From: a bacterium
Lineage (GTDB): Bacteria > Bacteroidota > Ignavibacteria > Kapaibacteriales > UBA7675
Length of the DNA: 64,000 nucleotides
Assembly: GCA_030430495.1 (NCBI GenBank)
Contig: JAUIKM010000017.1
Location: forward strand, 8,121-72,120
Direction: 5' to 3'
Under the pieces are notes generated by a model. The model made no database searches, was not told the origin of the DNA, and worked only from the letters and a program-made list of their open reading frames with translations. Made by a program: the position numbers and the translations under genes. Shown here piece by piece: positions 3,359 through 59,848 of this stretch (position 1 is its first letter; each line of letters starts with the position of its first letter).

Positions 3359-3418
3359 TATTCGAGAACCGATGTCGCATTCATTTGCTCAGAGATGGAC
3401 TCATCAACTTTTGGCTTC

Positions 3419-3444
3419 TCTCTGCGTGACAAACAAGAGAAAGC
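3419..3444 (-). repeat. Partial copy of the dispersed intergenic repeat (core …CTTTCTCTTGTTTGTCACGCAGAG on the minus strand)
   Basis: Reverse complement matches the CTTTTG(T/C)TTGTCACGCAG core of the copies at 18538-18556 and 11791-11806. Confidence 0.5.
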
Positions 3445-3637
3445 ACCGCAGGAAACAGCACCGGGCTTTCCTGAACGCCGCCGCCCCGCCCCATTGAATT
3501 CCCCCGCCATTTTTTGTAATATGGTCCTTTATCTACTGCGAGCGATATTCCACAGATCAACCATTGCAGAGAGCGCTCCCCCCGCCGCACCCACAATCCC
3601 CGCGGCGGCATTCTTTCACTGACAGGTCATCCCGATC

Positions 3638-6600: not shown

Positions 6601-8584
6601 GCTCTACCTGTTCCAGTCAAAGCGCAATTATCTGGCGCGCGACCAGTATCTGCACGAATTGTACCGCCACCGCTCCGGCCAGGTGGCGGGCGTCCCGACC
6701 GCGCGTTTTTTCCGGCGCACCTATCGGGCATTTCTCATTATCCTGGTGATGACGACCGGCATCCTGCCGGTGATTGCCTATTTCATTCTTGCGAACGAGG
6801 CCACGTTCAATCTCCTGATTAAACACTCGCAGATTACCATGGCGCACCAGGTGCTCGAGCGCGAACACGAAGCCGCCGAGCGCGTAGCGCAGTTAAACAC
6901 CAATGAAGCGGACTACATCTACAACCGTCTGAAGCACGACGAACGAGGCATGTACCACGGCCCCTTCTTTGAATCCGGATTGCTCTGCACGGCCAGGCCA
7001 GTGCCCGCGGGCATCCGCGATACATTCGGCTTCGCCGGTATAATGGACACGGTTGTGATGCACGATCCGGAAAAAGACCCGGTCGGCAGCATTCTGCCGC
7101 GCCTGTTAAGCAGGCTGAGTCTGGCTGCCGAAAACAAGGTTGAACTGCGGCGTTATCTCGGCACCAGAGCGGCCGACAGCATCTGGAATACCGGCAGGTC
7201 GCTGGACGGCAGCAAAGCAGCCATGATTCACAAACGCCTGAACGGACCCGACAATGTCCTGATGCTCAGCTCCGGCGGAGTGCCGCATTTGAGAGCCGAC
7301 GGCTTCCGATTTGAGGAGACATCCATTTTTGTCGGCTTGTTCGTCGCCAGCCTGGCTTGCATTATCCTGTTGTACTGGGCCAGCTACAAGTTTGGCGAGC
7401 AGGTGCTGCTGAGTCGTTTTGCCAATCCGCGCTCCGGCCGCGGCACACACATCGAAATCCCGAAAGACGCGCCGCTGTTTATTATCAGCCGTCCTTTAAT
7501 TGCCGTGGACGAAATTATCGAGAACAGCACGTTCGACACGATTGATCCCGAATGGAAAGACCGTGTGATGTTCCTGGACCGCGCCGAACTGCTCGCTTTG
7601 ACAAACGACAAGATTGAAGCTATGGCGGAGACGGGCGTGCCGCTCTGCACCATCGAAGCATTCGACCTGGATCCGGAGTATTCACAAGCCAACATCCAGT
7701 TTATGCTCCGTGTTAACAAACTCAAGGTCGCGGCGGACTGGCAGGTAATTATTGTCGGCAGCGTCGACCCGACGATCGCCTTTCAGGATCAGTCCGTCAC
7801 GGCGGCCGGTGGCGGCAAAGCGGCGGATGCAGGCGCTGAGGGCGACGACAAAAAAGCTGTGCCTGGAGTCGACTCCAAAGACAACCTGGCGGCAGCGCGC
7901 GCCTACTCCACATGGCAAACCGCGTTTTACCAGGAAATGCACGATTCACAAATGTATCGCGCCGACCTGGAGGTAATAGTCGACGACCACAATCTCGACA
8001 GCGAACATCTGAAACAGTGCATCCGGATTATTGCACATGAGTTTCACATGACGCGCTGGTTGCGCCACCGCGGACGCAATCTGATGCGCCGCATCTGCCG
8101 CGATTACATGGGCTTTGACGAAGCGGCGCTGCGCCGCCAGATCATGCTCGAAGCCGAGCCGCTCTACCAGGCCATCTGGAATTCCTGCTCACGCGGTGAA
8201 AAAGTCCTGCTCGCCAACCTGGCGCGCGACGGCATCGTCAACGGTAAAAATAAACGCGGCGTGTACAGTCTGTTAAACAAACAGCTCATGATGCTTGTGC
8301 CGGACCCCAAACTGATCAACGACAGTTTCCGCGAGTACCTGCAGCGCGACGACATTCAACAGGAAGCCGATGCGCTGACGGAAAAATCCTCGCGTACGTC
8401 GTGGGAAAACCTGCGCACGCCTTTGATCGTTCTGCTCGCCGCCGGCGGCGCATTCCTGATCGTCACACAGCACGAAATCATCGACATGACAACCGCGATA
8501 ATTTCAGCTGTGACGGTGCTCGTGCCCGGCATCATGAAAGCGCTGGACTTTTTCCGCAATGGACGTGTGGCCAGCGGCGGCTGA
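3638..8584 (+). CDS. Giant polytopic membrane protein, paralog B (1648 aa). It has an N-terminal TM, a coiled-coil/Cache-like periplasmic module 1, two TMs, a Cache-like periplasmic module 2, ~8 TM helices, a ~620-aa cytoplasmic module of unknown function and a C-terminal TM
   Basis: ATG start with signal-anchor VLSFLMIVAIAMAAGYYF. Two segments end in the Cache-like strand motif (FNWVLVGAVPSNTLL and TPWTLIVYFSEEAVL), each followed by TM helices. No His-kinase, GGDEF/EAL, MCP or ATPase motifs recognisable. The C-terminal ~120 aa are conserved with paralog A. Confidence 0.85.
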   Translation: MPTPNAPRKKLRVLSFLMIVAIAMAAGYYFSFYTQKREYVVDRNFRRLGVISEQIEARMDGVHNILENAVENIGIDSTRRDSLIEVVSRIEKNIEEQKTAIINSQSDKETVSQVIEESIKSIQTGRARSDAKFTDIRRQETSQKISRQALQLNQELARAQDAAPRAEETDNSNVNARQLEDLQNKLGEAQAALEYINYRERLAAAIGIIPFATLEYANTVSSANHTQAGDGAADGGEAEQNEKTDILQPFSSSIENVELIGQKLYLSYLNNAGNGSDLIIRVRIDLEEMIAQQIGDVIFDDVFLAKSGGEVIYQHNKHRGNVRSFDKVQDLNNDETSFEFGQLIKSGGLVTAQLSGRENVLFARPLQMEIGTRDSTNFNWVLVGAVPSNTLLSESMALPTNTILVFVFVAALLILVWPLLNILGAGTFTRLRKLDLAFLGLSATLGSALIALLIVDQYQLTNLRKTMDNQLKATAEEAHNNFHTELHQAYSQLRFLADAVAPALDSTYIEWEDNPLTIVTRRSIDDTRTVRLTLEGQLPRTHNMFNFVRGDTSDTAAPGGWDYVNFDRVFFADPSGDIKVKLAAESAATPFLNVSSRDYFRDVQQRNMLVLHEGDHDHESDDHGAQHGHGKERLNKHIDTVEFALSQHHSWASGAYETTMAIPVNPDTTREATWLAGMDIGTLASFDKPLLPPTFNFVLVDEHGNVIYHTRPERSGFENFLTECDGNQRLAATLAGRRSDWLSSTYWGENRRIFTMPLHDTPWTLIVYFSEEAVLDGSNIVMLTSTLGLYGVNLLLLLILVVLGFSSSSVQLDWLWPSLLEYRTYRNLSLIYLGFLIFYAVTLTQDVRFDHVMVAALLLPVFFVFITYFSLKRQEKLNFRLALIILPFAGFYPLAAAVQLYNSQLIHSPAWKFVLPLLLVSVLPAAIVGLRKLMNRAKGIRRDWRRELLFNVVTYHLLILVLQTRYQLWDNKIEFFYHLILIAMTAYALYLFQSKRNYLARDQYLHELYRHRSGQVAGVPTARFFRRTYRAFLIILVMTTGILPVIAYFILANEATFNLLIKHSQITMAHQVLEREHEAAERVAQLNTNEADYIYNRLKHDERGMYHGPFFESGLLCTARPVPAGIRDTFGFAGIMDTVVMHDPEKDPVGSILPRLLSRLSLAAENKVELRRYLGTRAADSIWNTGRSLDGSKAAMIHKRLNGPDNVLMLSSGGVPHLRADGFRFEETSIFVGLFVASLACIILLYWASYKFGEQVLLSRFANPRSGRGTHIEIPKDAPLFIISRPLIAVDEIIENSTFDTIDPEWKDRVMFLDRAELLALTNDKIEAMAETGVPLCTIEAFDLDPEYSQANIQFMLRVNKLKVAADWQVIIVGSVDPTIAFQDQSVTAAGGGKAADAGAEGDDKKAVPGVDSKDNLAAARAYSTWQTAFYQEMHDSQMYRADLEVIVDDHNLDSEHLKQCIRIIAHEFHMTRWLRHRGRNLMRRICRDYMGFDEAALRRQIMLEAEPLYQAIWNSCSRGEKVLLANLARDGIVNGKNKRGVYSLLNKQLMMLVPDPKLINDSFREYLQRDDIQQEADALTEKSSRTSWENLRTPLIVLLAAGGAFLIVTQHEIIDMTTAIISAVTVLVPGIMKALDFFRNGRVASGG

Positions 8585-8654
8585 CCGACTTAAACAGCGT
8601 TTCAGGCGGAAATATGACGGACCTGGAACAAAGCGGCGGCTTCCGGCATTCAAC

Positions 8655-8718
8655 ACGCTGACAAACAAGAGGAAAAAGCAAGCCGCCCGCTTTGCAGAAG
8701 CGGAGGCGAAGCGCTCAG
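8655..8718 (-). repeat. Dispersed intergenic repeat, full-length copy (~92% identical to the copy at 52118-52181, opposite orientation). GC hairpin followed by a T-rich tail; terminator-like for the minus-strand arsR operon
   Basis: Reverse complement CTGAGCGCTTCGCCTCCGCTTCTGCAAAGCGGGCGGCTTGCTTTTTCCTCTTGTTTGTCAGCGTG versus 52118 CTGAGCGCTTCGCCTCCGCTTCCTCAAGCGGGCGGCTTGCTTTTTGCTTTTGTTTGTCGGCGCG. Sits immediately downstream, in the minus sense, of the arsR stop at 8843. Confidence 0.75.
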
Positions 8719-8842
8719 GCCTCAGGCGGTAAGTCCGCGGAGAAGGCCGATAAAACGCATTTAAACAACAACCGCCATACGGCGTCCCGTACGGCGGTGC
8801 GGAATGTTAACATCTTGAGAGTTGGATCGGGAGAATGTGCGC

Positions 8843-9187
8843 TCAGTCCCCGTCCGGATTTTCGTCCAGGTAGCGTTCCAGTGCGTCCAGTTTTTCCGTC
8901 CAGAAAACCTGATACTGCTGCACCCAGTCGGCCACCTCCTTTAACTTGTCGAACTGCGCGTGGCAGGTGCGTTCGCGGCCATTCTTGCGAATGTTAATCA
9001 AGCCCGCCTCGGACAGAATTTTAACGTGTTTGGCGACGGCCTGACGGCTGGATTCGAAGTGGTCGGCCAGCGCCAGCATGCTGTGCGAACGGTCCGCCAA
9101 CAGTTTAATAATCCGCCGGCGCGTCGGGTCCGCTATGGCGTCAAACACGTCGCGATGTGGCCCGCTGTACTCACTTGGCTGTACCAT
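8843..9187 (-). CDS. ArsR/SmtB-family HTH transcriptional regulator
   Basis: 114 aa. Winged-HTH core …DPTRRRIIKLLADRSHSMLALADHFESSRQAVAKHVKILSEAGLI… is typical of ArsR. Overlaps the upstream SRPBCC gene by 17 bp (operon). Confidence 0.85.
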   Translation of the reverse strand: MVQPSEYSGPHRDVFDAIADPTRRRIIKLLADRSHSMLALADHFESSRQAVAKHVKILSEAGLINIRKNGRERTCHAQFDKLKEVADWVQQYQVFWTEKLDALERYLDENPDGD

Positions 9188-9754: not shown

Positions 9755-11533
9755 TTATGCCCCGGCGTCCGTCGTCGGCAGAGTGAACCAGATTTGAGTA
9801 TCGGAGTGATGCAGATGCACGCGCTGCGTTGAGCCCGCGCTGAGCTGCAATTCCCGCTCGAAGAAATAGAGGGCCTGGCCCCAGTGAACGTCGTCGCCGT
9901 CGGGGCCGCTGTTGAGTGTGAGGCCCTCGCCCAGGTCGAGCTCAAACCAGAACATGACGCCGTCGCAGGCGCCGCTTTCCAGCGGAGAAAATTCCAGATC
10001 GTGACGATGTCCGGCAGCCACGGCAGGCGAAGCGGGCGGCCGATAAAAATCGAGGGCCAGCGCTTCCACGACGGGGCTGAGCAGCCGGCAGGGCTCGCGG
10101 CGCGCGTCGATACCGACGTATTCCCAGGGAATGCGGAAGGCGTCAAAAGCCGAGAGATCAAAACCTTCGATCTGCGCAACGGGATTGACGAGGCGCAGTT
10201 TGGGGGCGCGAACAAGCGCGCAGTAAATCCGCGCCGCGGACGGAATCAGGCGCACATTCTCCGACGCAAGCTTGCCGGCGGCATGGCGCATGGTCGGCAG
10301 AATGCCTTCGCCCAGCAGCCCGGCATCGACGACTTCGGCCAGGATGACGTCGGCCGGACGCGGCAATTCGTGCCCGACGCGCAGACCGGTCGACTTGGCT
10401 TCGAACAACTGAATTTTATCGCTCATGGAATTGTCAGCCAGAACGCGGCGGGTGACGGGCGCAATCAGCGAGTTCATCTCGCAGGCGACGACGTCGCCGG
10501 CGCCGGCGCGCACGGCCATCATGGCGAGCAGCCCGCTGCCGCTGCCGATATCCAGCACCAGATCGTCCGGGCCGACGGCCTGCCGGATTGCGGCGTCAAA
10601 GCGACTGTTGCGCGCCGTATCGCTGAGCAGCTGCAGATGCCAGGCGGGGAAATTGCGGCGACGCGCGCGGCGCAGATTGCGGTCGGCCAGAAAATCGTCG
10701 GGATCGCGCGCCAGAATCTCCTCAAAAGCCGCAATCGACTCATCAACGCGATTCAGCATAAAAAGCGCATTGGCGCGGCGGCGCAGCGCGTCGCTGTTGG
10801 CGGGGTCGACCGCAACGGCCTGTTCATAACTTTCCAGCGCCGCCTGGTAGTCGCCGTTGTCCTCGTGCGCCGTGCCCAGGGAAACGTGCGCCAGCGACTC
10901 TTTCGGTTTGTCTTTCACGAGTGCGCTCAGCAGGTCGATCGCCGCGTTGACTTCGCCGTTCATACACAGAACATTGCCGATGTTGACGCGCGCGTGCACA
11001 TCGCCCGGATCGACGTTCAGCACTTCTTCGAACAGGGCGCGCGCTTCGTCCAGCCGCCCCTGCATGCGCCGCACATTGCCCAGGTTTACGAGCAGCGGCG
11101 CTTGCCTGGGCCGCAGTTTGCGCGCCGCCTCGTACTCCTGTGCCGCTTCATCAAGCCTTCCCTGCTGCGCCAGCACGTTGCCGAGGTTGAACAGATTGCC
11201 GAAATCGTCGGCTTTGATGTCGATCGCAGCGCGGTAGGCCCTGATCGACGCGTCGAACTCACTGCGTGCGTAGAGCACGTTGCCGAGCAGTCCGTGGGCA
11301 AAACCGTTGTGCGGATCCGCCTTGACGGCTCGCGCCAGCAGTTTGTGCGCCAGGTCCATGCTGCCGCGCTGATAGTGGATGGAACCGAGGTTTGCCAGGG
11401 TGTCGGCGTGTTTGGGGTTGGTCTGCAGCACGCGCTGATACGACTTGATCGCCGCATCAAATTTGCCCTGCAACTGACTGCGGAGAGCTTCCTGGAACAG
11501 CTGCTGCGCCCTGCCCGTGAGTATTTTGGCCAT
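9755..11533 (-). CDS. TPR-repeat protein fused to a PRMT-like (protein arginine N-methyltransferase family) class I SAM-dependent methyltransferase domain
   Basis: N-terminal ~300 aa contain many 34-aa TPR repeats (…A(L/I)xxYxxALxxxPxxxxAxxNLG…). The C-terminal half has motif I VLDIGSGSGLLAMMAVRAGA, the acidic post-I residue VVACEMNS, a double-E loop ADVILAEVVDAGLLGEGIL, and a THW-like loop VHWGQALYFF. Order and spacing are as in PRMT1/Hmt1. Confidence 0.75.
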   Translation of the reverse strand: MAKILTGRAQQLFQEALRSQLQGKFDAAIKSYQRVLQTNPKHADTLANLGSIHYQRGSMDLAHKLLARAVKADPHNGFAHGLLGNVLYARSEFDASIRAYRAAIDIKADDFGNLFNLGNVLAQQGRLDEAAQEYEAARKLRPRQAPLLVNLGNVRRMQGRLDEARALFEEVLNVDPGDVHARVNIGNVLCMNGEVNAAIDLLSALVKDKPKESLAHVSLGTAHEDNGDYQAALESYEQAVAVDPANSDALRRRANALFMLNRVDESIAAFEEILARDPDDFLADRNLRRARRRNFPAWHLQLLSDTARNSRFDAAIRQAVGPDDLVLDIGSGSGLLAMMAVRAGAGDVVACEMNSLIAPVTRRVLADNSMSDKIQLFEAKSTGLRVGHELPRPADVILAEVVDAGLLGEGILPTMRHAAGKLASENVRLIPSAARIYCALVRAPKLRLVNPVAQIEGFDLSAFDAFRIPWEYVGIDARREPCRLLSPVVEALALDFYRPPASPAVAAGHRHDLEFSPLESGACDGVMFWFELDLGEGLTLNSGPDGDDVHWGQALYFFERELQLSAGSTQRVHLHHSDTQIWFTLPTTDAGA

Positions 11534-11752: not shown

Positions 11753-12478
11753 ATGACCAGATCCAGATTTGTCCTTACTGCCTGTTTCTTTTGTTTGTCA
11801 TGCAGCCTGATGTTCTCAGCCGCGCCGCGGGCGGCGGCGCAGGACAAACCCGAGCCGCCCGATTCGCTGATGGTGAAGACATTCAGCGTGCGCCACTATT
11901 CCGACTTTGACGACTGCGACCTGGAGATCAGGTATCCACAGATTGTGGACGAGGACGGCGACCCCTACGATGACACGATCGACTATCCGGCGCTGACGGC
12001 CATCAACACGGAAATCTGCCGCGCGCTGATGCTGGCGCCCGAGACCGTTCTGGAGCAGTGCGAACCATTGGCGGTCAAGCGCATCGACTATCGCGTCTAC
12101 TACAATCGCGACGGCTGGCTGAGCATGATTATCGAAACGCGCGTGGTCGACAGTTTTGCCGGCGACGAGGAACTGGACGCGATGATCTTCCAGGAGGCTT
12201 TCCACTTTAACTTTCTGACCGGCAAACGCCTGCTCTTGTCCAACATGATGCAGGGCAACTACGTCGAGGCGCTGCAGGTTTTCCTGCAACGCGCTCTGGT
12301 GGCGCGCGGTTATGAAGACGCCACGCCCTACGTGGAAGACGACACGGCATTTTACCGCGACGGCGACAACCTGGTGTTCATCATTGACATCGAAACGCCG
12401 CCGGAACACGTCGCAATTCCGTTCAAAGCCGTCAAGGAGTTTCTGACGGACGACGTGCCGCTGCGCCACGACGACTGA
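11753..12478 (+). CDS. Hypothetical secreted protein (signal peptide; possibly DUF4163/DUF3298 RsiV-like fold)
   Basis: 241 aa. N-terminal signal peptide …LTACFFCLSCSLMFSAAPRAAAQ; acidic mature protein. The start is uncertain because nt 11783-11814 are also a copy of the dispersed repeat core. Confidence 0.55.
   Translation: MTRSRFVLTACFFCLSCSLMFSAAPRAAAQDKPEPPDSLMVKTFSVRHYSDFDDCDLEIRYPQIVDEDGDPYDDTIDYPALTAINTEICRALMLAPETVLEQCEPLAVKRIDYRVYYNRDGWLSMIIETRVVDSFAGDEELDAMIFQEAFHFNFLTGKRLLLSNMMQGNYVEALQVFLQRALVARGYEDATPYVEDDTAFYRDGDNLVFIIDIETPPEHVAIPFKAVKEFLTDDVPLRHDD
11783..11814 (+). repeat. Copy of the dispersed repeat core (CTGTTTCTTTTGTTTGTCATGCAGCCTGATGTT) embedded in the 5' end of the 11753 CDS
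   Basis: Near-identical to 18533-18568 (TTCTTTTGCTTGTCACGCAGCTGGATGTT). Confidence 0.55.
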
Positions 12479-14055: not shown

Positions 14056-14086
14056 ACAGCGTTTGCAGAACACTCGACACTTTAAA

Positions 14087-14125
14087 CTCCGGACGACTCG
14101 CCGCAGTCGTTCGGAGTTTTTTTTG
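14087..14125 (+). terminator. Rho-independent terminator after glyQS
   Basis: 11-bp stem CTCCGGACGAC / GTCGTTCGGAG (one G·U pair), 8-nt loop, followed by TTTTTTTTG. Lies 32 bp after the stop. Confidence 0.7.
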
Positions 14126-14170
14126 TTTGAGACTGGATTTGAGCACGGCGTTTAACAACGTGAAACGGAC

Positions 14171-14223
14171 TCTGGACGCGGGGCTTTGTACTCGACGACA
14201 AACAAAACCCTCATGAGAGCCTG
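14171..14223 (-). repeat. Divergent copy of the dispersed intergenic repeat
   Basis: Reverse complement CTGCCTCGCTTCGCATCGGCATCAGGCTCTCATGAGGGTTTTGTTTGTCGTCG shares the CGCTTCGC… and …TTTTGTTTGTCG blocks with the copies at 52118 and 8655. Confidence 0.45.
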
Positions 14224-14525
14224 ATGCCGATGCGAAGCGAGGCAGCAAAGCGATCAGGGAACACACCGTCCGACTCCCGCAACATGCACCGCTAAAACTC
14301 TCGCCGCAAACGAAAAAAACTGAACGTGACGAATTCCGCGCCGAACGCTTATTGTTTCGCGGTCAGCGGGAATTGTACGCGGCAAATTGCATTCGCTACG
14401 GGCCGTACATACGCGAAACCGAATGCCCCCCGACCGTGTTGAACGCAGACGACACAATGCACGAACGGCATTGTCGTTGTCTTCAAAGAGCCAGATTCGC
14501 AGCATATTTCCCTTCGGAGCCAAGC

Positions 14526-17701: not shown

Positions 17702-18442
17702 ATGAGCGACGCACTGGAATACCGCAATTCGCTGTATGCCGACTACGCCAATTCCTGGGGTAAATTCACTTCGCTGGACGACGTGTACGAATGGCTCGAC
17801 CGCACGTCCCGGGGGCTGGAGCACGAATTCCTGCCCATGCTTCCGGCCGATAAAAACTGCAGTATTCTCGATGTGGGCTGCGGCTGCGGACCGCTCCTGT
17901 ACATGCTTAAACAACAGGAATACGGCAACGCGCGCGGCATCGACGTCAGCCCGAGCCAGGTGGAAACGGCGCACAAAGCCGGCCTGCACAACGTCAAACA
18001 AGCCGACGCAATTGACTTCCTGCAGAACAGCGACCACCGCTACGACGTGATTTTCGCCATCGACCTGATTGAGCACTTAAACAAAACCGAGTTCATCTCG
18101 CTGATGCAGTCCATGCGCGGCGCGCTGCGCCCCGGCGGTGAGATTATCATGCGCACGCCCAATGTGGACGCGCCATTTGGAACCGTGTATTCCTACGGCG
18201 ATTTTTCACACGAAATGCACTTGAACAAACTCTCGACGCACGAAATTCTCAGCGCCCTTCAATTCCGCGAGGTCCGGGTAATTCCTTCGGAGCCGCGCGC
18301 GCACACAACCGCACGCGAATTACTTCGAAAGGGCATCTGGGCCTTTATGCGGCCGGTGTTTGCCGCTCTGTTATTTTCCCGCGGTCTGCGTCAGGGCGAC
18401 GTGGTTTTAACACCCAACATGGTTATTCGCGCTCGCCGTTGA
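17702..18442 (+). CDS. Class I SAM-dependent methyltransferase (Methyltransf_11/23-like)
   Basis: Motif I ILDVGCGCGPLLYML, acidic post-I GIDVS, motif II/III …YDVIFAIDLIEHL…LRPGGEIIM. 42 bp downstream of the beta-CASP gene on the same strand. Confidence 0.8.
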   Translation: MSDALEYRNSLYADYANSWGKFTSLDDVYEWLDRTSRGLEHEFLPMLPADKNCSILDVGCGCGPLLYMLKQQEYGNARGIDVSPSQVETAHKAGLHNVKQADAIDFLQNSDHRYDVIFAIDLIEHLNKTEFISLMQSMRGALRPGGEIIMRTPNVDAPFGTVYSYGDFSHEMHLNKLSTHEILSALQFREVRVIPSEPRAHTTARELLRKGIWAFMRPVFAALLFSRGLRQGDVVLTPNMVIRARR

Positions 18443-18500: not shown

Positions 18501-18556
18501 CTGAGCGCTTCGCCCTGCGTTGCATGGCTTGCTTTTTTCTTTTGCTTGTCACGCAG
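18501..18556 (+). repeat. Dispersed intergenic repeat copy between convergent genes
   Basis: CTGAGCGCTTCGCC…GGCTTGCTTTTTTCTTTTGCTTGTCACGCAG. Shares both the 5' CTGAGCGCTTCGCC block and the 3' T-rich CTTTTGNTTGTC block with the copies at 52118 and 8655. Confidence 0.65.
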
Positions 18557-27450: not shown

Positions 27451-30400
27451 ATGTTTATTCAGGCAGCCCGGATATTGAGAACGTCAGACACATACCATCA
27501 CGGACCGTTGGTTGCGCGGGCACTGCTCCTGTGCGGCCTGATTCTCCTGTTCGCCATTGCGAATATGCGCGCTCAGGATGAACGCGACTACCTTGGCCGC
27601 GAGTTTTTCCTATGTTTTCCACCGAATATTCACAAAGCGGGCGGACAGTCGCCTCCCGACGACAGCCTCTACATTTACATCAGCTCCGACAGGCCGACGA
27701 CCGGACGGATTGAGTTCAGCGACCGCGAGGGCAATCGATCCGAGCGGCGCTTTAGCATCGAAGATCCCAATCTGGCGCATGTGGAGAGTTTTGCATACAG
27801 CGACTATGAACTGCAGGGCTACAACCTCAACGGCCTGCTCGACAATCCCGACTCACAGAACGAAACGGTTTCGCGCCAGGTTTTTTACGTGGTGGCCGAC
27901 CGCGACATCAGCGTGTACGGTCTCAACCACGCCGGCGCCTCCAGTGATGGTTTTATGGCCTTGCCGGCCGATGTGCTGGACGGATACTATGTGATTCCGG
28001 CCTTTCCGTCGGACACGCGCATTCTCGACAATCGCCCGGCGCCTTCGAGCACGCCCTCGCAGTTTGCCGTCGTTGCGTTGAATGACAACACGGATATTCT
28101 GATCCAAACGAACGCTCCCGTCCCGGTGGCAAACAAAGAGCCAATCCAGATCACGCTGCAGCGCGGCCAATGTTATCTGGTGCAGTCGCGCATTTCCGTC
28201 AGCGAACCGTCGAACGACCTGACGGGCAGCGTTGTGATCAGCGACAAACCCCTGGCCGTATTTGCCGGACACCAGCGCAGCCAGGTGCCGGGCGGAGATA
28301 CTCGGAACGCCGCGACGCAGGATCATATTATTCAGCAGGTAGCCCCCGTTTCGACCTGGGGCAAACAGTTCAGCTTGGCGCCACTGATCGTGACGGGCGA
28401 CGATGACGGCGTCGGCAATGACATTGTCCAGATAGTGGCGGCGCAGGCCCAGACGCGCATTTACATTAACGGCGCGGAAAAAGCTCTGCTGGATGCGGGG
28501 CAGAGCCTGCTGGAACCGATCAGCGGGCCGCTTTTCATCAGTTCGGACGAGCCGATTCACGTGACGCATCTGCGCCACTCTTCTTCGCTGACAGGCGCCG
28601 GTACGCCGCGATTGGGCGATCCCTTTGCCCTGTCGATCACGCCGAAGGAACAGTGGCTGGACAAATACACCTTTTCGACGGCACAGGCATTTTCCAACCT
28701 GAACCGCGAAGACCGCCTGGTATTTGAGTACCAATATCTGATGATCACGCTGCCGACCGGCACGCCGATCGATCTTGCGCTGGACGGCGTGGCCGTCAGC
28801 GACGAAAACTTCACGGTAGCGCCGTTCGGCGACTTTCTCTACGCGAATATTCCGGTGACGACGGGACGGCACGTGCTGCAATCGACCGTTCCATTCGGTG
28901 CGCATGTTTACGGTTTCGGCGAGGCGGACTCATACGCCTTCCCTGCCGGCGCGGCACACACGCCGATCAATCTGGAGTGCAGCGCCGACGCCGGACCGGA
29001 CATAACGGTCTGCCGCGGCGACACGGTAATGTTGAATGCCGTCAGTATCGGTTTTGACGAGCCGACCTTCCGCTGGTCCCCGGCGGAAGACCTGATCAGT
29101 TCGCCTTTTGCCAAACAGCTGCGGCTGCGGGCGATGCGAACCACCTGGTACAAACTGCTGGTACGCGACGAACGCGGCTGCCGCGCAGAAGACTCCGTGC
29201 TGGTCACCGTGACGGAGAAACCGCAAATCAACGCCGGGTCGGATCACGTGATCTGTCCCGGCGAGAGTGTGCAACTGGGATTTGAGGACCCGGGCGTACC
29301 GATCACCCGCGTGCGCTGGACGCCGGCGGACAAGGTCGATGATCCCGCCTCTCCCGCGCCGATCGCAACACCCGGTCAGGCGACCGGATTTATCGTCGAA
29401 GTCGAAACCGCATCCGGCTGCGTCGTTTTTGACACCGTGGTCGTCAACGTGCGCGAACGCCCCGTGGTCGACGCCGGTCCCGACGTCGACATATGCGAGG
29501 GCAGCAGCGCCGAACTGACGGCTACCGGCGGCGTCAGCTATGAGTGGCGTCCCGCGGACGGCCTCAACCGAACCAACATCTTCAATCCCATTGCCAAACC
29601 AGAAAAATCCACCAAGTATTTTGTCAGGGTAACGGACGCTTTCGGCTGCGTCAATGAGGATTCGGTCACGGTCTTTGTGAGCGAATGCCGGCCCTGCGAG
29701 TCGATTTCCGGCATCATCAACGAATATGCTTCGGTTGTGGCGCTGGATTATCCCACGCGGCGCGTGCGCGTCGTCGACGGTTCGGTGTTTGCACCGGGCG
29801 ATCTGGCGATGATCGTGCAGATGCAGGGTGCGGAGATCAACGTTGAGCAGGCGGAAAGCTACGGCCGGATTGAAAATCCGATGTCGGCCGGCGCATACGA
29901 ACTGGTGCGCATAGACAGCATTAGCCTGAACTTGCTCAGCCTCAATCGACCGATTCACAATCAATACGATCCCGCCGGCAAGGTGCAGGTGGTGAAAATC
30001 CCCGAATACGACCACGTTACGGTGGTGGACCGCGTGTTCGCGCGCCCCTGGGACGGCAATGTGGGCGGTGTGGTGGCCATGGCGGCCAACTGCCTGATTG
30101 TGGAAGACACTATTTCTGTGGATACGAGCGGCTTCCGCGGCGGGCGTTATGAAGTGCAATCAGGTTGCCGCTTTGAACCCAATACAACCGCCTGGGTGTC
30201 GGATCAGCTTTGTCGCTTTTCCTATCGCGGCGAAGGCACGGCGAGCTACGGAGTCCCGCCGAATGTCTACGGTCGCGGCGCACCGGCCAACGGCGGCGGC
30301 GGCGGCAACAACCACAATGCGGGCGGCGGCGGCGGCGGCAACGGCGGAGCGGGCGGCAAGGGCGGCAACGGCTTCCGCAACTTCGCCAACTGGGATCAGG

Positions 30401-31758
30401 CCGGCGGCGTGGGCGGGTATCCCCTGTCCAAAATTGCGGCAGCCGATACTTCGGGCCGGCTGTTCATGGGCGGCGGCGGCGGAGCGGGACACGTGAACCA
30501 CACCAACGGTTCCGGCGGTGCGCGCGGCGGCGGCATCGTGTACATCCGCGCGGGCACGCTGCGCAGCACGCCCAATTCGCTGATAACGGCGCGCGGACAG
30601 CACGCGGCAAACGACACTTCGACGCTCAATCCCGACGGATGCGGCGGCGGCGGAGCAGGCGGAACGATTATGCTGCACGTGGACCAGATTCTGGAGGATG
30701 TCGAGCTCGACGTACGCGGCGGCAACGGCGGCACGCGCCTCGCCGAGCAGCAGACAACATCCGGTCCCGGCGGCGGCGGCGGCGGCGGTCTTGTTCTCCT
30801 GTCGCTGAACATCGAAACCAATGACTTCGAAATTTTCACACATACGGCCGGCGGCGCCGCGGGCGAATTGGGTCTGGCCTCCGGCAACAACTACGGCGCG
30901 GCGCCGGGACTGCACGGCGCGATCATCGATTCGCTGAAAGGACGCGGCGTCTACTCCCAGGCAATCTTCGGTCCCTGCCGCGGGTGTTATCCGGTGCGCA
31001 AGGCGACGACGGGAGGCTGCGGCAGCGTCGAGTTCGACGTAGCCGACGCCAATTTTGAGATTGTCAGCATCGAACTGGACGCCGACAGCGACAATGTGTC
31101 GATGGAGACCGAGGAGCTGAATTCGCTGCGCGTCGGCGTGGAAATCGAACTGGACGATCCGCTTCGCGCGGGCAATTATGTGGTCTATGGGCGCAACAGC
31201 AACGGCAAAGAGTCGATTTTCCGCGGCACGATCCTGCCGGAGCCTCCTATGCCGGAGTTGAGTTTCCGCAACGACTCGCTCTTCATCAATTCGAATATTT
31301 TGCCGCGGATCGACTCGATACAGTGGTACAGCGAGGAGCGCGGCGCTTTGATTCAACGCACGGCGGATCGCCTGCCGCTGGTCGATTCCGGCGTGTACTG
31401 GGTGCAGGTCTGGAACGAGGAAGGGTGCTCGGCATTTTCGGAGCGCTACAACTTCAATGCAATCAGCAGTGTGATGTTCCCGCCGCTGGAGCGGCCGCAG
31501 ATCGAACTGAATCTCTTTCCGAATCCGGCGGACAACCTGTTGACAATTCGTTGTCGCACGCGTTTGCTGCAAGGCCTGGAAGTGCAGATAAGCGACGTAT
31601 TCGGGCGCATCGTCTGGCGACGCGCGCTGCCGGACTACCAATCGCTGCATGAAATTGAAGTGGATCTGGACCGTCTGGCGTTGGCGCCCGGGGGATATTC
31701 GGCCGGCATTGTAGCACCCGGCTACAGGACATCTCAGATGTTTATTAAACAACCCTGA
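27451..31758 (+). CDS. Giant secreted T9SS cargo protein (adhesin-like). N-terminal beta-rich domain, at least 3 tandem Cys-framed Ig-like repeats, a Gly-rich beta-solenoid-like segment, and a C-terminal T9SS sorting domain
   Basis: Signal-like N-terminus (…LLLCGLILLFAIANMRAQ). Repeats (I/V)C(R/P/E)G(D/E/S)(T/S)V.L…(F/V/Y)(R/E)W.PA(E/D)…GC…DSV.V.V at 28980-29680. Gly-rich region 30250-30850. C-terminal …ELNLFPNPADNLLTI…VQISDVFGRIVWRR… matches the T9SS CTD pattern. The start at ATG 27451 is uncertain; an upstream in-frame start at 27373 is possible. Confidence 0.8.
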   Translation: MFIQAARILRTSDTYHHGPLVARALLLCGLILLFAIANMRAQDERDYLGREFFLCFPPNIHKAGGQSPPDDSLYIYISSDRPTTGRIEFSDREGNRSERRFSIEDPNLAHVESFAYSDYELQGYNLNGLLDNPDSQNETVSRQVFYVVADRDISVYGLNHAGASSDGFMALPADVLDGYYVIPAFPSDTRILDNRPAPSSTPSQFAVVALNDNTDILIQTNAPVPVANKEPIQITLQRGQCYLVQSRISVSEPSNDLTGSVVISDKPLAVFAGHQRSQVPGGDTRNAATQDHIIQQVAPVSTWGKQFSLAPLIVTGDDDGVGNDIVQIVAAQAQTRIYINGAEKALLDAGQSLLEPISGPLFISSDEPIHVTHLRHSSSLTGAGTPRLGDPFALSITPKEQWLDKYTFSTAQAFSNLNREDRLVFEYQYLMITLPTGTPIDLALDGVAVSDENFTVAPFGDFLYANIPVTTGRHVLQSTVPFGAHVYGFGEADSYAFPAGAAHTPINLECSADAGPDITVCRGDTVMLNAVSIGFDEPTFRWSPAEDLISSPFAKQLRLRAMRTTWYKLLVRDERGCRAEDSVLVTVTEKPQINAGSDHVICPGESVQLGFEDPGVPITRVRWTPADKVDDPASPAPIATPGQATGFIVEVETASGCVVFDTVVVNVRERPVVDAGPDVDICEGSSAELTATGGVSYEWRPADGLNRTNIFNPIAKPEKSTKYFVRVTDAFGCVNEDSVTVFVSECRPCESISGIINEYASVVALDYPTRRVRVVDGSVFAPGDLAMIVQMQGAEINVEQAESYGRIENPMSAGAYELVRIDSISLNLLSLNRPIHNQYDPAGKVQVVKIPEYDHVTVVDRVFARPWDGNVGGVVAMAANCLIVEDTISVDTSGFRGGRYEVQSGCRFEPNTTAWVSDQLCRFSYRGEGTASYGVPPNVYGRGAPANGGGGGNNHNAGGGGGGNGGAGGKGGNGFRNFANWDQAGGVGGYPLSKIAAADTSGRLFMGGGGGAGHVNHTNGSGGARGGGIVYIRAGTLRSTPNSLITARGQHAANDTSTLNPDGCGGGGAGGTIMLHVDQILEDVELDVRGGNGGTRLAEQQTTSGPGGGGGGGLVLLSLNIETNDFEIFTHTAGGAAGELGLASGNNYGAAPGLHGAIIDSLKGRGVYSQAIFGPCRGCYPVRKATTGGCGSVEFDVADANFEIVSIELDADSDNVSMETEELNSLRVGVEIELDDPLRAGNYVVYGRNSNGKESIFRGTILPEPPMPELSFRNDSLFINSNILPRIDSIQWYSEERGALIQRTADRLPLVDSGVYWVQVWNEEGCSAFSERYNFNAISSVMFPPLERPQIELNLFPNPADNLLTIRCRTRLLQGLEVQISDVFGRIVWRRALPDYQSLHEIEVDLDRLALAPGGYSAGIVAPGYRTSQMFIKQP

Positions 31759-38981: not shown

Positions 38982-39920
38982 ATGGCGCAGGCGCGCAATG
39001 ATTCATCACGGCCCCTGCCGCCCGTGATGCAGCGCAGCGTCAAACGCTACCTGCAGCACATCGCCGTGGAAAAGGGACTGGCGGGAAAAACCGCCGAATC
39101 CTATGCCGTCGACCTGCGCAACTTCGCCGAATACCTGGTTTCGATCGGTCTGGACGATTTCACGGCGGCCAATGAAAACATCGTCGTGGACTTTTTGCGC
39201 AAGCTGGAGGAAATGGGGCTGGCCGTCAGTTCGCGTGCGCGCAAACTCTACGCTCTGCGCGGTTTCTACCAGTTTCTGGCAGGCAGCGGCGCCGTAAAGG
39301 CCGACTGCACCGAACACGTCGACCTGCCGAAGGTGCGGCGCGTCCTGCCGCCAACGCTGACAATTGAACAGATGCTGCGCATCATCGAATCGCCCGACGT
39401 GTCGAAACCGGCGGGCGTCCGCAATCGCGCCATGTTGGAGACGCTCTACGCCTGCGGACTGCGCGCCTCGGAATTGCTGGGACTGCGCCGCAGAGACGTT
39501 TTGTCCGACCTGGAAATCATCCGCGTGACGGGCAAAGGTTCCAAAGAGCGCGTGGTTCCTATAGGCAGCGGCGCGCTGGGTTGGATAGAACGCTACCAGA
39601 ACGAGGTGCGGCCGACCTTCCTGCGCACGGGCACAACCACGGACGACATCCTCTTCCTGAATCAGCGCGGCGGCGGCCTTTCGCGCATGGCCCTGTGGAA
39701 ATTTGTCAAACAGGCAGCGACGGAGGCGGGCATTGCGGTGCACGTACATCCGCACATGTTTCGTCATTCGTTTGCAACGCACCTGCTGGAGGGCGGCGCG
39801 GACCTGCGCGCGGTTCAGGAAATGCTCGGCCATTCGGACATCGCGACGACGCAGATCTACACGCACATCGACCGCGAATACATTCGCGAGGTGCACAGAA
39901 GTTTTCATCCGCGCGCCTGA
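38982..39920 (+). CDS. Tyrosine recombinase XerC/XerD family (chromosome dimer resolution)
   Basis: N-terminal SAM-like core-binding domain (…YLQHIAVEKGLAGKTAESYAVDLRNFAEYL…). Catalytic R…HxxR…Y: …LRASELLGLRR…HMFRHSFATHLLEGGADLRAVQEMLGHSDIATTQIYTH. Confidence 0.88.
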   Translation: MAQARNDSSRPLPPVMQRSVKRYLQHIAVEKGLAGKTAESYAVDLRNFAEYLVSIGLDDFTAANENIVVDFLRKLEEMGLAVSSRARKLYALRGFYQFLAGSGAVKADCTEHVDLPKVRRVLPPTLTIEQMLRIIESPDVSKPAGVRNRAMLETLYACGLRASELLGLRRRDVLSDLEIIRVTGKGSKERVVPIGSGALGWIERYQNEVRPTFLRTGTTTDDILFLNQRGGGLSRMALWKFVKQAATEAGIAVHVHPHMFRHSFATHLLEGGADLRAVQEMLGHSDIATTQIYTHIDREYIREVHRSFHPRA

Positions 39921-47423: not shown

Positions 47424-47490
47424 CACGGGTGGACTCCCGACCCTGTCGGAGTCAAGCCGCGTTTCTCCATCGACAGCTCGCGGTTCCGCT

Positions 47491-47518
47491 CCCGCTGACA
47501 AACAAAAAAATCAAGCAG
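47491..47518 (-). repeat. Partial copy of the dispersed repeat core
   Basis: Reverse complement CTGCTTGATTTTTTTGTTTGTCAGCGGG, adjacent to a plus-oriented fragment GGTTTTGTCGGGCG. Confidence 0.4.
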
Positions 47519-47608
47519 GGTTTTGTCGGGCGCCAGGAACGTCCATGCGCGGCATCCAACATCCGCTCGCAAGACAGTGCGACAGGACAAGGACAAACGG
47601 GGAAATTC

Positions 47609-52034: not shown

Positions 52035-52117
52035 GATCTGTTTAAGTCGGCTTTCAACATCTGTCTGCGGCGGGGAGCCGTCCCGATGGCCGCACAGCAT
52101 AGCACTACCAATCCACT

Positions 52118-52181
52118 CTGAGCGCTTCGCCTCCGCTTCCTCAAGCGGGCGGCTTGCTTTTTGCTTTTGTTTGTCGGCGCG
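52118..52181 (+). repeat. Dispersed intergenic repeat, full-length copy (terminator-like: GC-rich imperfect hairpin plus a T-rich tail) 84 bp after the PCP gene
   Basis: CTGAGCGCTTCGCCTCCGCTTCCTCAAGCGGGCGGCTTGCTTTTTGCTTTTGTTTGTCGGCGCG; ~92% identical to the reverse complement of 8655-8718. Confidence 0.75.
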
Positions 52182-52727
52182 TATCCGGCGCGAAGTAGTT
52201 CAGTCGGCGGAAGACGTCAAGTCGACCGGACTCGAACATCAAGGATCGGAACAAGAGCTGCAAACGCACAGCGCGGCGACGCGGTTTCTGGCTCTGCGTT
52301 CCACGGCGGTTTGTGGGCCTGGCCTTCAACAACTCATCGGCAGGTGTTAAACTCTCCGGCTTTTGTCTGCGCGACGAACAAGAGAGTCAGGAACCGGAGA
52401 CCGCAGCGCAAGCAAGGGCTCTGGGGGCATTTTCAAGCGGCATCTTTTGCTCCTCCTGATGGTCAGCAAAACCGGAATCAATCTATGAAAACAGGCGGCG
52501 GCTCAATCGCTCGTCGGCCTTGATTTGTTGTACCTGCGCAACATGCGGCCAAACAGCAATCATATCAAGCGGAAAAACGCGAACGGCATGTTTTCACCGA
52601 CAAGCGTGGCGTATTTTCGAGTTAAACGGGACGCAACAGCAGGCGAACATCAGAACCATTTAAACCACAAACGCGACGCCTCCCCGTTCGGAAGCGTCGC
52701 GCATTGGTTAAATGTTAACAGCCGGTA

Positions 52728-57792: not shown

Positions 57793-59784
57793 ATGATGGA
57801 ATCTGGCATGCACAGTCTCCGCAGAACGTGGTTTTTCTCCGTTTTGGCCTGTTATTCTCTTGTTTGTCTTGCAGTGAGCAGCGGCGCGCCCGTTGCCAAC
57901 GCCCAGGCAACGGGTGAGGACACGACCGCTTTCCGTCCGCTGCGCTGGACGGCGGGTCTGGGGCTGAATGCAAACATGCATTCGGCCGGATTCGTAGAGC
58001 TGCCGGGCATCCCCAATTGCTGCGCGGAATACAGCGACGGATTTGGCCTGGGCCCTTACCTCTACGGCGGTTTTGACTACGACCCGCAGTCGGAGCTCTT
58101 CGGCATGCCCTGGCGCTGGAACGTGACGCTCGGCGTCAGCTCCGTCGGCGCCACCCTGGAAGAAGATGAATTTTTTGCCTGGGCCATCGACGGCGACGAG
58201 GCAATCGAGGCGATCTCGCGCCACACGCTTGACGCATCGATCCTGTTGCTTTCGCTGGAGCCGTCAATCGCGCTGCTGCCGGTGGGCGACATGCCGGAGT
58301 TTTCGCTTCAGGTGGGCCCGACGCTGGGATTTGCACTGAGTTCTTCGGCCGATCAGTCCGAAGACTTACTGCAGCCGGCGGGTTACGACCTGGAGACTCT
58401 GCGTCCCAGCCGCAACGAGTACTCCGGCGCGATTTCGGACGCGACGACTTTGCATGTGGGGCTGCGTTTGGGACTCGGCTACGACTTCCTGCAGTTCGAC
58501 GACTTTACGCTGGGCGCGGAAGCCGCGTACAGAATGGCGTTTAACGACCTTGTCAGTGGCGTTGAGTGGAAACACAGCAGCGTCCAGACCGGCCTGCGGC
58601 TTGCCTGGCGGCCGCCTGCGGCAACGGAACCTCCTCCTCCTCCTCCGCCGCCGCCGCCCCCGCCACCGCCGCCGCCTCCCCCACCGCCGCCGGAACCACC
58701 GGTTCTGACGCTGGCAGCGGAGATGTTCGTCGGAACGAAAAAACTCAGCGAAGGCGAAAGCATCGACATTCCTGTCAACCTTACACGCAACATTCAATCG
58801 CGTGTACAGCGCGCGCAATTCTATTTCAGAGCGGGTTCAGACGACCTGCTGGCGGACAACGCGATTGACCGCGAGGAAATGTTAAACGCGCTGGCGCTCA
58901 GTGCCAGGCATGCAAAGAGCATCAGAATTACGGCTCAGGCCGCCGCCGATGAAGACGAAGCGCTCGCGCGCGCCCGTGCGGAATTCTTCCGCGGTGAATT
59001 GCTGGTTCGCGGCGTCGATGTTAAACAACTGGAAGTCTCAATTGTCCGCAGTGAGGACAAAAATGTTCGCCATCCGGCCTTGCTGGAGGAACAGCGCATG
59101 CTGCGTTTTGACTTCGGCGGTACGGACAATCTGTTAATCCTGCGCGACACCACTGAAAACCGCGAATTCGGCGCGGTCGAGCTGGTCGCGGCGCCGGCCA
59201 TGACCGTCGAGCAGCGTCCCTATGTGCTGGTCGGAGAGTTAACACTCGCCGGGCGGCAGTTGTCGATCCTGAAAGACGGACCGGTCAACTTCACACTTGA
59301 AGGCGACGCGCTGCCGCGCAACGGCCGGGGCGAGGCGCTCCCGGCAAAGATAACGGCCGCCTACACGCTACAGGACGGCGTCGGTCAGCAGCGCGCGGCA
59401 AGCAGCAATGTGATCGCAACACCCCGCACAACAGTGACGGAATACGTCAACCGCTTGAACAAATCGACGGACGAAGAATGGGTGCTCGGTTACTTCAACT
59501 TCGACGGAGACAACTTTGCCGAAGTCAACGACAATGCCGTTGAACGCATTCAACGCGCCGCCAAAGCAGGCAAAACCATCACGATCACGGGCATGGCCGA
59601 CGCGCTCGGCAGCGAGGACTACAACCGTCGATTGGCGCGGCGCCGCGCAGACAGCGCCCTGACGCTGCTGGGGATGCAGGCGGATGAGGTCAAAATTGAG
59701 CTGCTTGAAGATGGGCGTTTTGACAACAGCTCGCCCTACGGAAGGATTCGGAATCGGAGCGTGGTTGTGAGGATTGGAGATTGA
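57793..59784 (+). CDS. OmpA-family protein: N-terminal outer-membrane/beta-rich domain, a 21-residue polyproline spacer, and a C-terminal OmpA/MotB peptidoglycan-binding domain
   Basis: Signal peptide. C-terminal OmpA-like …TITITGMADALGSEDYNRRLARRRADSALTLL…. Poly-Pro tract at 58630-58692. Confidence 0.75.
   Translation: MMESGMHSLRRTWFFSVLACYSLVCLAVSSGAPVANAQATGEDTTAFRPLRWTAGLGLNANMHSAGFVELPGIPNCCAEYSDGFGLGPYLYGGFDYDPQSELFGMPWRWNVTLGVSSVGATLEEDEFFAWAIDGDEAIEAISRHTLDASILLLSLEPSIALLPVGDMPEFSLQVGPTLGFALSSSADQSEDLLQPAGYDLETLRPSRNEYSGAISDATTLHVGLRLGLGYDFLQFDDFTLGAEAAYRMAFNDLVSGVEWKHSSVQTGLRLAWRPPAATEPPPPPPPPPPPPPPPPPPPPPEPPVLTLAAEMFVGTKKLSEGESIDIPVNLTRNIQSRVQRAQFYFRAGSDDLLADNAIDREEMLNALALSARHAKSIRITAQAAADEDEALARARAEFFRGELLVRGVDVKQLEVSIVRSEDKNVRHPALLEEQRMLRFDFGGTDNLLILRDTTENREFGAVELVAAPAMTVEQRPYVLVGELTLAGRQLSILKDGPVNFTLEGDALPRNGRGEALPAKITAAYTLQDGVGQQRAASSNVIATPRTTVTEYVNRLNKSTDEEWVLGYFNFDGDNFAEVNDNAVERIQRAAKAGKTITITGMADALGSEDYNRRLARRRADSALTLLGMQADEVKIELLEDGRFDNSSPYGRIRNRSVVVRIGD
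58630..58701 (+). repeat. Low-complexity CCN-codon tract encoding 21 consecutive prolines (…TEP21EPPV…)
   Basis: Read directly: cct×5, then ccg/ccc/cca×16, then gaa cca ccg. Confidence 0.95.
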
Positions 59785-59848
59785 CGGCTGAGGGCCGGAC
59801 TACGTAGAAATACGGATGAGCTCTGTGCCCTTCATGCTCACAGCGGCT

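Follow-up and report, generated by a model that had tools for sequence, protein, structure and literature searches.

Two short, nearly identical sequences lie 43 kb apart and in inverted orientation in the 64,000-nt stretch of DNA analyzed here (the window), and both have the look of intrinsic terminators. Are they simply terminators, or does the conservation of the entire sequence mark them as something that has been copied from place to place? Copy A occupies 52118..52181 on the forward strand and copy B 8655..8718 on the reverse strand, exactly where the initial annotation had placed them. Its figure of ~92% identity is too high, as global alignment gives 57/64 identical positions and one 1-nt loop indel, or ~89%. 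The likeness stops abruptly on the 5' side at CT|GAGCG and fades on the 3' side ~6-12 nt past ...GTTTGTC, and exact 18-mers from either half find only A and B in the window, with 0.2-0.3 sites expected by chance even when 3 mismatches are allowed. Copy A consists of a 5' arm, CTGAGCGCTTCGCC (52118-52131, +), an apical insert (52132-52150, +), a 3' arm, GGCTTGCTTTTT (52151-52162, +), and a T-rich tail, GCTTTTGTTTGTC (52163-52175, +), followed by GGCGCG (52176-52181); the corresponding parts of copy B are found at 8718-8705, 8704-8685, 8684-8673 and 8672-8660 (-). In the predicted structure of both, a weak basal stem leads through an internal loop to a GC-rich apical stem, which has one bulge, and UUUUU comes after the hairpin. 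With a core dG of -16.8 kcal/mol ahead of that U-run, the terminator-like anatomy of a GC-rich hairpin and a U-rich tail is borne out. The 91-nt regions of A and B are no more stably folded than shuffled sequence.

The two sequences had been described as a pair, and this description does not hold. A third full element, copy C, at 18501..18556 (+), carries A/B-type arms, CTGAGCGCTTCGCC and GGCTTGCTTTTTTCTTTTGCTTGTC, around a different and shorter apical hairpin (GCC-C-TGC-gtt-GCA-T-GGC; core dG = -9.3 kcal/mol). Beyond the window, we scanned one genome per species from 185,579 species with the pattern CTGAGCGCTTCGCC-N5-30-GGCTTGCTTTTT and obtained 28 matches, all in a single metagenome-assembled genome (MAG), CAYULF01, on 18 of its contigs; the pattern was absent from every other species genome scanned. 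With ~90.6% nucleotide identity to the window and 16 kb of collinear sequence, this MAG represents a congener of the window's organism rather than the same genome. A covariance model trained on 31 strict copies, a search of the kind first suggested for this locus, recovered 39 matches at E<1e-5 in 273 kb, with scores of 71.7 bits (E 6e-19) for copy A, 75.5 bits for copy B and 68.2 bits for copy C, and its weaker matches form a graded series in which mainly the tail is retained. The concern that these two might be the only copies in the genome is thus answered by three full copies in the window and 28 strict copies in the congeneric MAG.

Outside this genus, the family was not found. A relaxed pattern gave 0 matches in viral contigs and 7 in metagenomes, the latter apparently due to chance, lying mostly in coding sequence and without the CT prefix and tail. 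Three relatives whose glycyl-tRNA synthetases (GlyRS) are 72-73% identical contain no copy in 61 kb, and the tail motif, found 14 times in the window, occurs 0-1 times per 20 kb in these relatives. We had considered the tail motif as a general, class-wide signal and rejected this, as the motif is lineage-specific. In the genomes scanned, then, the family is restricted to one uncultured genus. The best-named GlyRS relatives belong to Kapabacteria, Ignavibacteria and Bacteroidota (~70%). The MAG, whose loci we number L001-L028, is labeled "uncultured Hyphomicrobiales bacterium", a label that looks wrong given these GlyRS relatives and the T9SS Por_Secre_tail and CHU_C proteins in the orthologous window. 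A literature search for the element's sequence strings returned nothing relevant, and we know of no extragenic repeat family from this deep-branching uncultured Bacteroidota lineage.

In addition to the three full copies, the window holds about eight degenerate or tail-only relatives. A diverged "F2"-type relative, GAGCCC...CTGACTCTCTTGTTCGTC, at 52343..52421 (-) faces copy A from the hsp33 side; it falls under the covariance-model threshold and was assigned by eye, from its tail motif and its likeness to L008/L013/L019-type copies. This block is strongly conserved between the window and CAYULF01, while its surroundings are not. A degenerate copy, CGCTTCGC...GGCTC...TTTTGTTTGTC, at 14186..14253 (-; 16.7 bits, E 0.04) lies antisense between the tandem forward genes glyS and that of an S41 peptidase, and its 5' half is conserved in L004. 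A tail-only relative, TTTTTGTTTGTCAGCGGG, at 47486..47530 (-; 17.5 bits) is likewise antisense between two tandem forward genes, encoding an aminotransferase and Ham1 (orientation confirmed by Pfam), and is ~100% conserved in L018. The remaining tail-only relatives are CTCTTGTTTGTCACGCAG at 3417..3463 (-; 17.8 bits), which is preceded by an unrelated hairpin and has a weak ortholog at 5948-6007 of the ENA contig L037; CTTTTGTTTGTCATGCAG at 11770..11810 (+; 19.9 bits), 10 nt upstream of the start of a forward gene; and, as a weak assignment, CTCTTGTTTGTCTTGCAG at 57837..57879 (+; 15.1 bits, E 0.13), between the genes of a T9SS-tail protein and an OmpA-family protein. The tail motif CTTTTGTTTGTC is itself enriched in the window, with 20 sites at <=2 mismatches against 5.2 expected.

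Compared across the family, the unit is ~75-85 nt long and comprises a sharp-edged 5' arm, a hypervariable apical hairpin, a 3' arm and a long T-rich tail, nCTTTTGTTTGTCAgCGgG, conserved over ~25 nt. The 5' border is again sharp at CT|GAGCG, with an additional CTGA 7-8 nt upstream in about half of the copies, and on the 3' side conservation runs through ...GTTTGTCAgCGgG and is gone by ~+12. Between GCC and GGC, the insert varies from 7 to 20 nt, and all 38 inserts examined are distinct. Pairing is nonetheless kept. Copy C belongs to a 37-nt subfamily of eight members with compensatory changes in all three apical pairs (U-A/C-G, G-C/A-U and C-G/U-A; nine double-change cells), in which 100% of the apical cells are paired, a value matched by 0/500 shuffles, and in the GCC/GGC helix a C-G pair has become U-A in 2 diverged copies. 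The basal helix behaves differently, being invariant and so free of compensated variation, and broken without compensation in ~3 copies, so that the arms look conserved as sequence and not as pairs. Core dG ranges from -7 to -17 kcal/mol over the family, with T5 following the hairpin; several copies nearly lack an apical stem, and the family mean z against shuffles is only -0.95. The element is strictly polar, and its basal pairs include G-U on the forward strand only. Fold strength is equal on the forward and reverse strands, so that this attempt to discriminate RNA from DNA function gave no difference. One locus, L021 1226-1302, contains a tandem duplication of the 37-nt core, in which the first unit is tailless and abuts the CTGAGCG of the second.

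Orthologous sites tell us which of these parts are held in place. We compared three pairs, namely copy A with its counterpart in L018, copy B with L037 793-874 and copy C with L004 4505-4565. The 5' arm and left stem are identical at 60/60 positions, and the right stem, 3' arm and tail at 87/92, giving 147/152 for arms and stems combined, against 6/15 for the loops and 46-82% for the flanking intergenic DNA. At the L018 ortholog of copy A, the loop is the sole difference, and copy B differs from its ortholog in the loop and 4 tail positions. This part-by-part pattern indicates that the element is under purifying selection, strong in the arms and stems, and that the loop is free to vary. At all six orthologous sites compared, no difference in presence or absence was seen between the genomes, and with every comparable site occupied in both, there is no direct sign of recent movement. 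The suggestion that conservation of the whole sequence betrays a mobile or recruited element stands as far as a dispersed, multi-copy family goes, with 28 strict copies in the MAG; the mobility of that family is a point we infer from the sequences.

Copying is nevertheless visible in the sequences themselves. The stem and bulge TCCGC...GCGGGC are common to A, B, L006, L017 and L024, in which the loops differ, and the recurrence of an identical stem and bulge at unrelated loci points to copying and not to convergence. Multi-copy repeats of this kind may also leave their mark on assemblies. A Logan short-read contig (L036, ERR3428548_247004) that carries the ArsR-family gene next to copy B stops at ~8658, the far edge of that copy, which fits an assembly break at a multi-copy repeat.

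How the copies sit relative to genes bears directly on whether they are terminators. Genes were called by a codon-usage score trained on the same sequences, which gave 29 copies with a called upstream gene. Twenty of these 29 are co-oriented with that gene, mostly 25-140 nt past its stop codon, as holds for A, B and C too, and in 3 copies the TGA of the element is itself the stop codon of the gene. Fourteen of the 29 lie in convergent spacers and 3 in divergent ones, and copies occur in either orientation, sometimes as facing pairs. In tandem spacers, there are 5 copies in the same orientation and 6 in the opposite one (strict set), or 10:9 by hairpin scan, compared to 31 forward and 11 antisense for ordinary terminator-like hairpins in the tandem spacers of the same sequences. 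Nine of the 29 copies are not co-oriented; five of the nine are antisense, with both flanking genes confirmed by Pfam, and no same-strand ORF was found that could explain the non-co-oriented copies. Furthermore, a second terminator-like hairpin precedes 10/37 copies by no more than 170 nt. Of these hairpins, ~6-7 are clearly canonical, combining a strong stem with a GTTGTTGTT-type tail, and a strong canonical terminator stands in front of copy B and at least five other copies.

The three full copies in the window illustrate this mixture. Each of the two original sequences had been placed immediately 3' of a gene on its own strand, and this needs correction. Copy A lies 83 nt past the stop of the 50595/50817-52034 (+) gene with nothing between. 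Copy B is found in the convergent spacer between an ArsR-family gene (8843-9187, -) and a 1648-aa gene (3638-8584, +), 124 nt behind the former, and a canonical terminator at 8771..8798 (-), with a 12-bp GC-rich stem and a TGTTGTTTAAA tail, intervenes. Because this separate terminator, 40/41 identical in L037, closes the AHSA1/ArsR operon, copy B is not needed to do so. Copy C lies 58 nt behind a methyltransferase gene (17702-18442, +), in a convergent arrangement with a UvrD-like helicase gene, and like copy A is the only terminator-like signal behind its gene.

The ordinary terminators of this genome, for example at 8771-8798 (-), 14084-14119 (+) and 52673-52700 (-), have a strong GC stem and a G-interrupted tail, TTGTTGTTTAAA or GTTTGTGGTTTAAA, and between window and MAG the stem of the glyS terminator has changed in a compensatory manner. 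No spacer separates glyS from the S41 peptidase gene in L038/L039/L040 (~11385-11440), from the nearest other relatives, the two genes abutting or overlapping there. Here they are separated by a gap of 300-470 nt (14056-14351 in the window), which holds the terminator and the antisense degenerate repeat copy; by this comparison, the spacer is expanded by repeat insertion.

Taken as a whole, the distribution of the copies demonstrates, at the level of sequence, that the family has been copied into dozens of intergenic positions that are not homologous to one another, exclusively in this lineage, and accumulates near gene 3' ends. We favor, with moderate confidence, the explanation that A and B are copies of a genus-restricted family of REP-like structured extragenic repeats, the forward copies of which have been co-opted as terminators or stabilizers. 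Where a forward copy follows a gene, as A and C do and as about two thirds of all copies do, its hairpin and U-run would end the transcript or stabilize its 3' end, and this role would amount to co-option as an intrinsic terminator, as seen in some REP/REPIN classes. Copies so placed probably do terminate or stabilize transcripts. The invariant, partly unpaired arms would form the recognition site of a putative protein that mediates dispersal, function or both, their likely purpose being to serve a protein by which the element is copied or used. Copy B, behind its ordinary terminator, would be redundant. Four observations argue that the elements are not simply terminators: orientation is random within tandem spacers, some copies follow existing terminators, the unpaired arms are invariant and the tail is over-long. 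The terminator reading given to the locus at the outset captures the anatomy and is too narrow otherwise, with about a third of the copies not behind a co-oriented gene.

The REP-like part of the original interpretation fits well. The elements are short imperfect palindromes, extragenic, dispersed in many copies and in both orientations, enriched at gene 3' ends and in convergent spacers and sometimes arranged as facing pairs. The REPs and REPINs of Enterobacteria and Pseudomonas, which are associated with RAYT transposases, share these features and are similarly short, structured and lineage-specific, with dozens to hundreds of copies and subfamilies. In P. fluorescens, the conserved arms of REPINs enclose a spacer whose sequence is different each time but which invariably forms a hairpin, and their flanking T-runs have been read as co-option for termination (PMC3337134). 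REPs in E. coli act as context-dependent terminators and mRNA stabilizers (bioRxiv 10.64898/2026.03.23.713779). The family described here differs in several respects. It is not built from one palindromic REP in two inverted copies, the 5' arm agreeing with the reverse complement of the 3' arm at only ~5/14 positions, so there is no REPIN doublet; its conserved parts lie largely outside the stable stem; it is a polar unit with a conserved T-rich tail of ~25 nt; and its host is a Kapabacteria/Ignavibacteria-like member of the Bacteroidota in which no RAYT was seen in the limited sequence searched. The REP consensus has a GTAG-type 5' tetranucleotide, and this element is without one.

MITEs had been named together with REPs. 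Like the Correia elements of Neisseria, ERIC/IRU and RUP, the present elements are small, non-coding interspersed repeats able to supply terminators or stop codons. They differ in being shorter and in having neither terminal inverted repeats (the ends, CTGAGCG... and ...GTTTGTCAGCGGG, are not complementary) nor target-site duplications, as 34 copies showed no excess of 3-6-nt direct repeats at any offset over permuted partners. Having neither the REPIN doublet nor the marks of a MITE, the family is best filed as a new family of a known kind and a member of neither class.

As an alternative to a co-opted repeat, the element might be purely selfish at the DNA level, either REP/RAYT-like or another single-strand hairpin substrate of an HUH/tyrosine enzyme. 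The hairpin and arms would then be kept for the mobilizing enzyme, and the T-run and position at gene ends would reflect nothing more than where insertions are tolerated. We regard this as possible, though clearly less probable than co-option. The random orientation in tandem spacers, the copies antisense to both neighbors and those behind existing terminators would all be expected of such an element, as would its restriction to one genus, its subfamily structure and its many degenerate remnants. Both strands fold equally well, the invariant and partly unpaired arms with a free terminal structure resemble DNA hairpins recognized by proteins, and the combination of no terminal inverted repeats with no target-site duplication is like that left by IS200/IS605-type transposition. 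However, copies that have stayed at orthologous sites are conserved far beyond their flanks, which would be unexpected of inert insertions serving neither the host nor some ongoing process, and a strictly polar, conserved ~25-nt T-rich tail and G-U basal pairs on the forward strand only also count against a purely DNA-level account. Neither are the arms mutual inverted copies, as a REPIN doublet would have. No ORF in 293 kb has a RAYT-like HUH/Y motif combination, by a crude regular expression applied to a small part of the genome; the interval between facing copies in L012, a possible site for a RAYT gene, has no credible ORF; and no insertion polymorphism was seen.

More tentatively, and in our view rather improbably, Kapabacteria-like Bacteroidota could possess an undescribed system of single-strand hairpin recombination or transposition that uses the element as its substrate, the host having later domesticated the element genome-wide as a polar 3'-end module. 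Here, the invariant arms and the internal loop would be what a protein recognizes, and the terminal hairpin would be free to vary, following a logic like that of attC sites and REPINs. Integron attC sites combine a base and an unpaired spacer, both conserved, with a terminal structure variable in sequence and length, an architecture that the element shares and that is characteristic of hairpins whose recognition depends on a protein and not on sequence alone. The element differs from attC in having no R''/R' core motifs (GTTRRRY was absent, as judged by eye), no cassette arrays and no adjacent integrase, its copies being dispersed singly over 18 contigs in both orientations. The sole tyrosine recombinase in the window, XerC/D-like (38982-39920), adjoins no copy. 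Such a system, if real, would represent a new partnership between a repeat and an enzyme and not merely a REP look-alike.

The copies might instead be dedicated intrinsic terminators, neither mobile nor duplicative, built on a lineage-specific framework that is read by a termination or RNA-binding factor. We consider this improbable. As in intrinsic (Rho-independent) terminators, a GC-rich hairpin leads directly into a U-run, and most copies, 20/29, follow a co-oriented stop codon, for most of them as the only terminator-like signal; in convergent spacers, copies often lie opposite another terminator, pairing is maintained by compensation and the arms are under selection. Unlike terminators, the element has invariant unpaired flanks, a tail that far exceeds a U-tract in length and, in tandem spacers, no preferred orientation, and its copies can be redundant behind canonical terminators such as 8771-8798, which are of a different type, with a strong stem and a TTGTTGTTTAAA tail. 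Nine of the 29 copies, five of them verified, cannot end a protein-coding gene. Copying is indicated by subfamilies whose members, at unrelated loci, have the same stem, bulge and arm, and the nearest relatives, which use ordinary terminators, lack the family altogether.

Very improbable is a family of small RNA genes, as had also been proposed, or of 3'-UTR platforms for a global RNA-binding protein, with the 5' arm as seed or binding site. A single-stranded 5' arm and internal loop that are invariant beside a terminator-like 3' end would suit this reading. Against it, the 5' border is sharp, and upstream of it there is neither conservation nor a shared promoter motif; copy number and degenerate remnants are also untypical of small RNA genes. 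Rfam 15 gave no gathering-score match across the window, and in the surroundings of A and B, with E relaxed to 10, it gave a single chance match (Sr006, 14.8 bits against a gathering score of 100). The window contains no tRNA or tmRNA genes. Finally, a 43-kb mobile or invertible segment with A and B as its inverted ends, as two similar sequences in inverted orientation might suggest, is effectively refuted by the third copy inside the interval, the 28 copies on 18 contigs of the related MAG, the housekeeping genes in between (glyS, a uvrD-like helicase gene, dapF and a xerC/D-like gene, with no transposase) and collinearity with the MAG where the two can be compared. As the interval consists of ordinary housekeeping genes in synteny with a related genome, the spacing and orientation of A and B are incidental and carry no meaning.

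Two further candidate functions were tried and rejected. A coding reading, in which the element would contribute an in-frame L-S-A-S-P-P... resembling a C-terminal sorting signal, is at odds with an ORF of ~25 codons, insert lengths that are not multiples of three and unrelated upstream sequence. A promoter reading of the tail or of a downstream GTTTAAAC-like motif is at odds with -10-like boxes at spacings of 6 to 35 nt and no TAnnTTTG, and is also disfavored by the absence of the tail motif from relatives.

With these elements, a deep-branching, uncultured lineage of Bacteroidota gains an extragenic repeat family with well-defined limits, which also accounts for short-read assembly breaks at such sites in this genus. 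They also offer a natural example of separate selection on the arms, kept as sequence, the apical stem, kept as pairing only, and the loop, which is free. If the forward copies do terminate transcription, they would show once more, and independently, that a dispersed repeat can be recruited to signal 3' ends. The family would also serve as a marker, and its covariance model as a tool, for annotating the genus, and has no bearing on any major open question.

Several other features were seen in the course of the analysis. In the convergent spacer between copy A and hsp33, a block of ~100 nt (52532-52629) is ~90% conserved relative to the MAG in surroundings full of indels; it has no ORF, no Rfam match and no unusual fold, and may be a small RNA or a protein-binding region. 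At ~5690-5790 of L025, a repeat copy is immediately preceded by several tandem copies of GGCTAACTCGTTTGC (variant GGCGGACTCGTTTGC). A second intergenic k-mer family, GAGCTGTGAGCCCT and its neighbors, is 10-20-fold more frequent than in coding sequence in MAG loci L001-L028 and weakly represented in the window (59818-59831), and may be another repeat family. The 13-mer CTGTTTAAGTCGG is found directly past two stop codons, at 52038-52050 (+) and 8585-8597 (-), in one case in the orientation of the gene and in the other against it; the ortholog L037 has not kept it, so that it is probably due to chance. Long GGC/GCC triplet-rich tracts are present at 30292-30789, in the gene of a 1461-aa IgGFc-binding/CHU_C-type protein, and at 58630-58694, in the OmpA-family gene, and by their composition would encode Gly- or Ala-rich low-complexity linkers.
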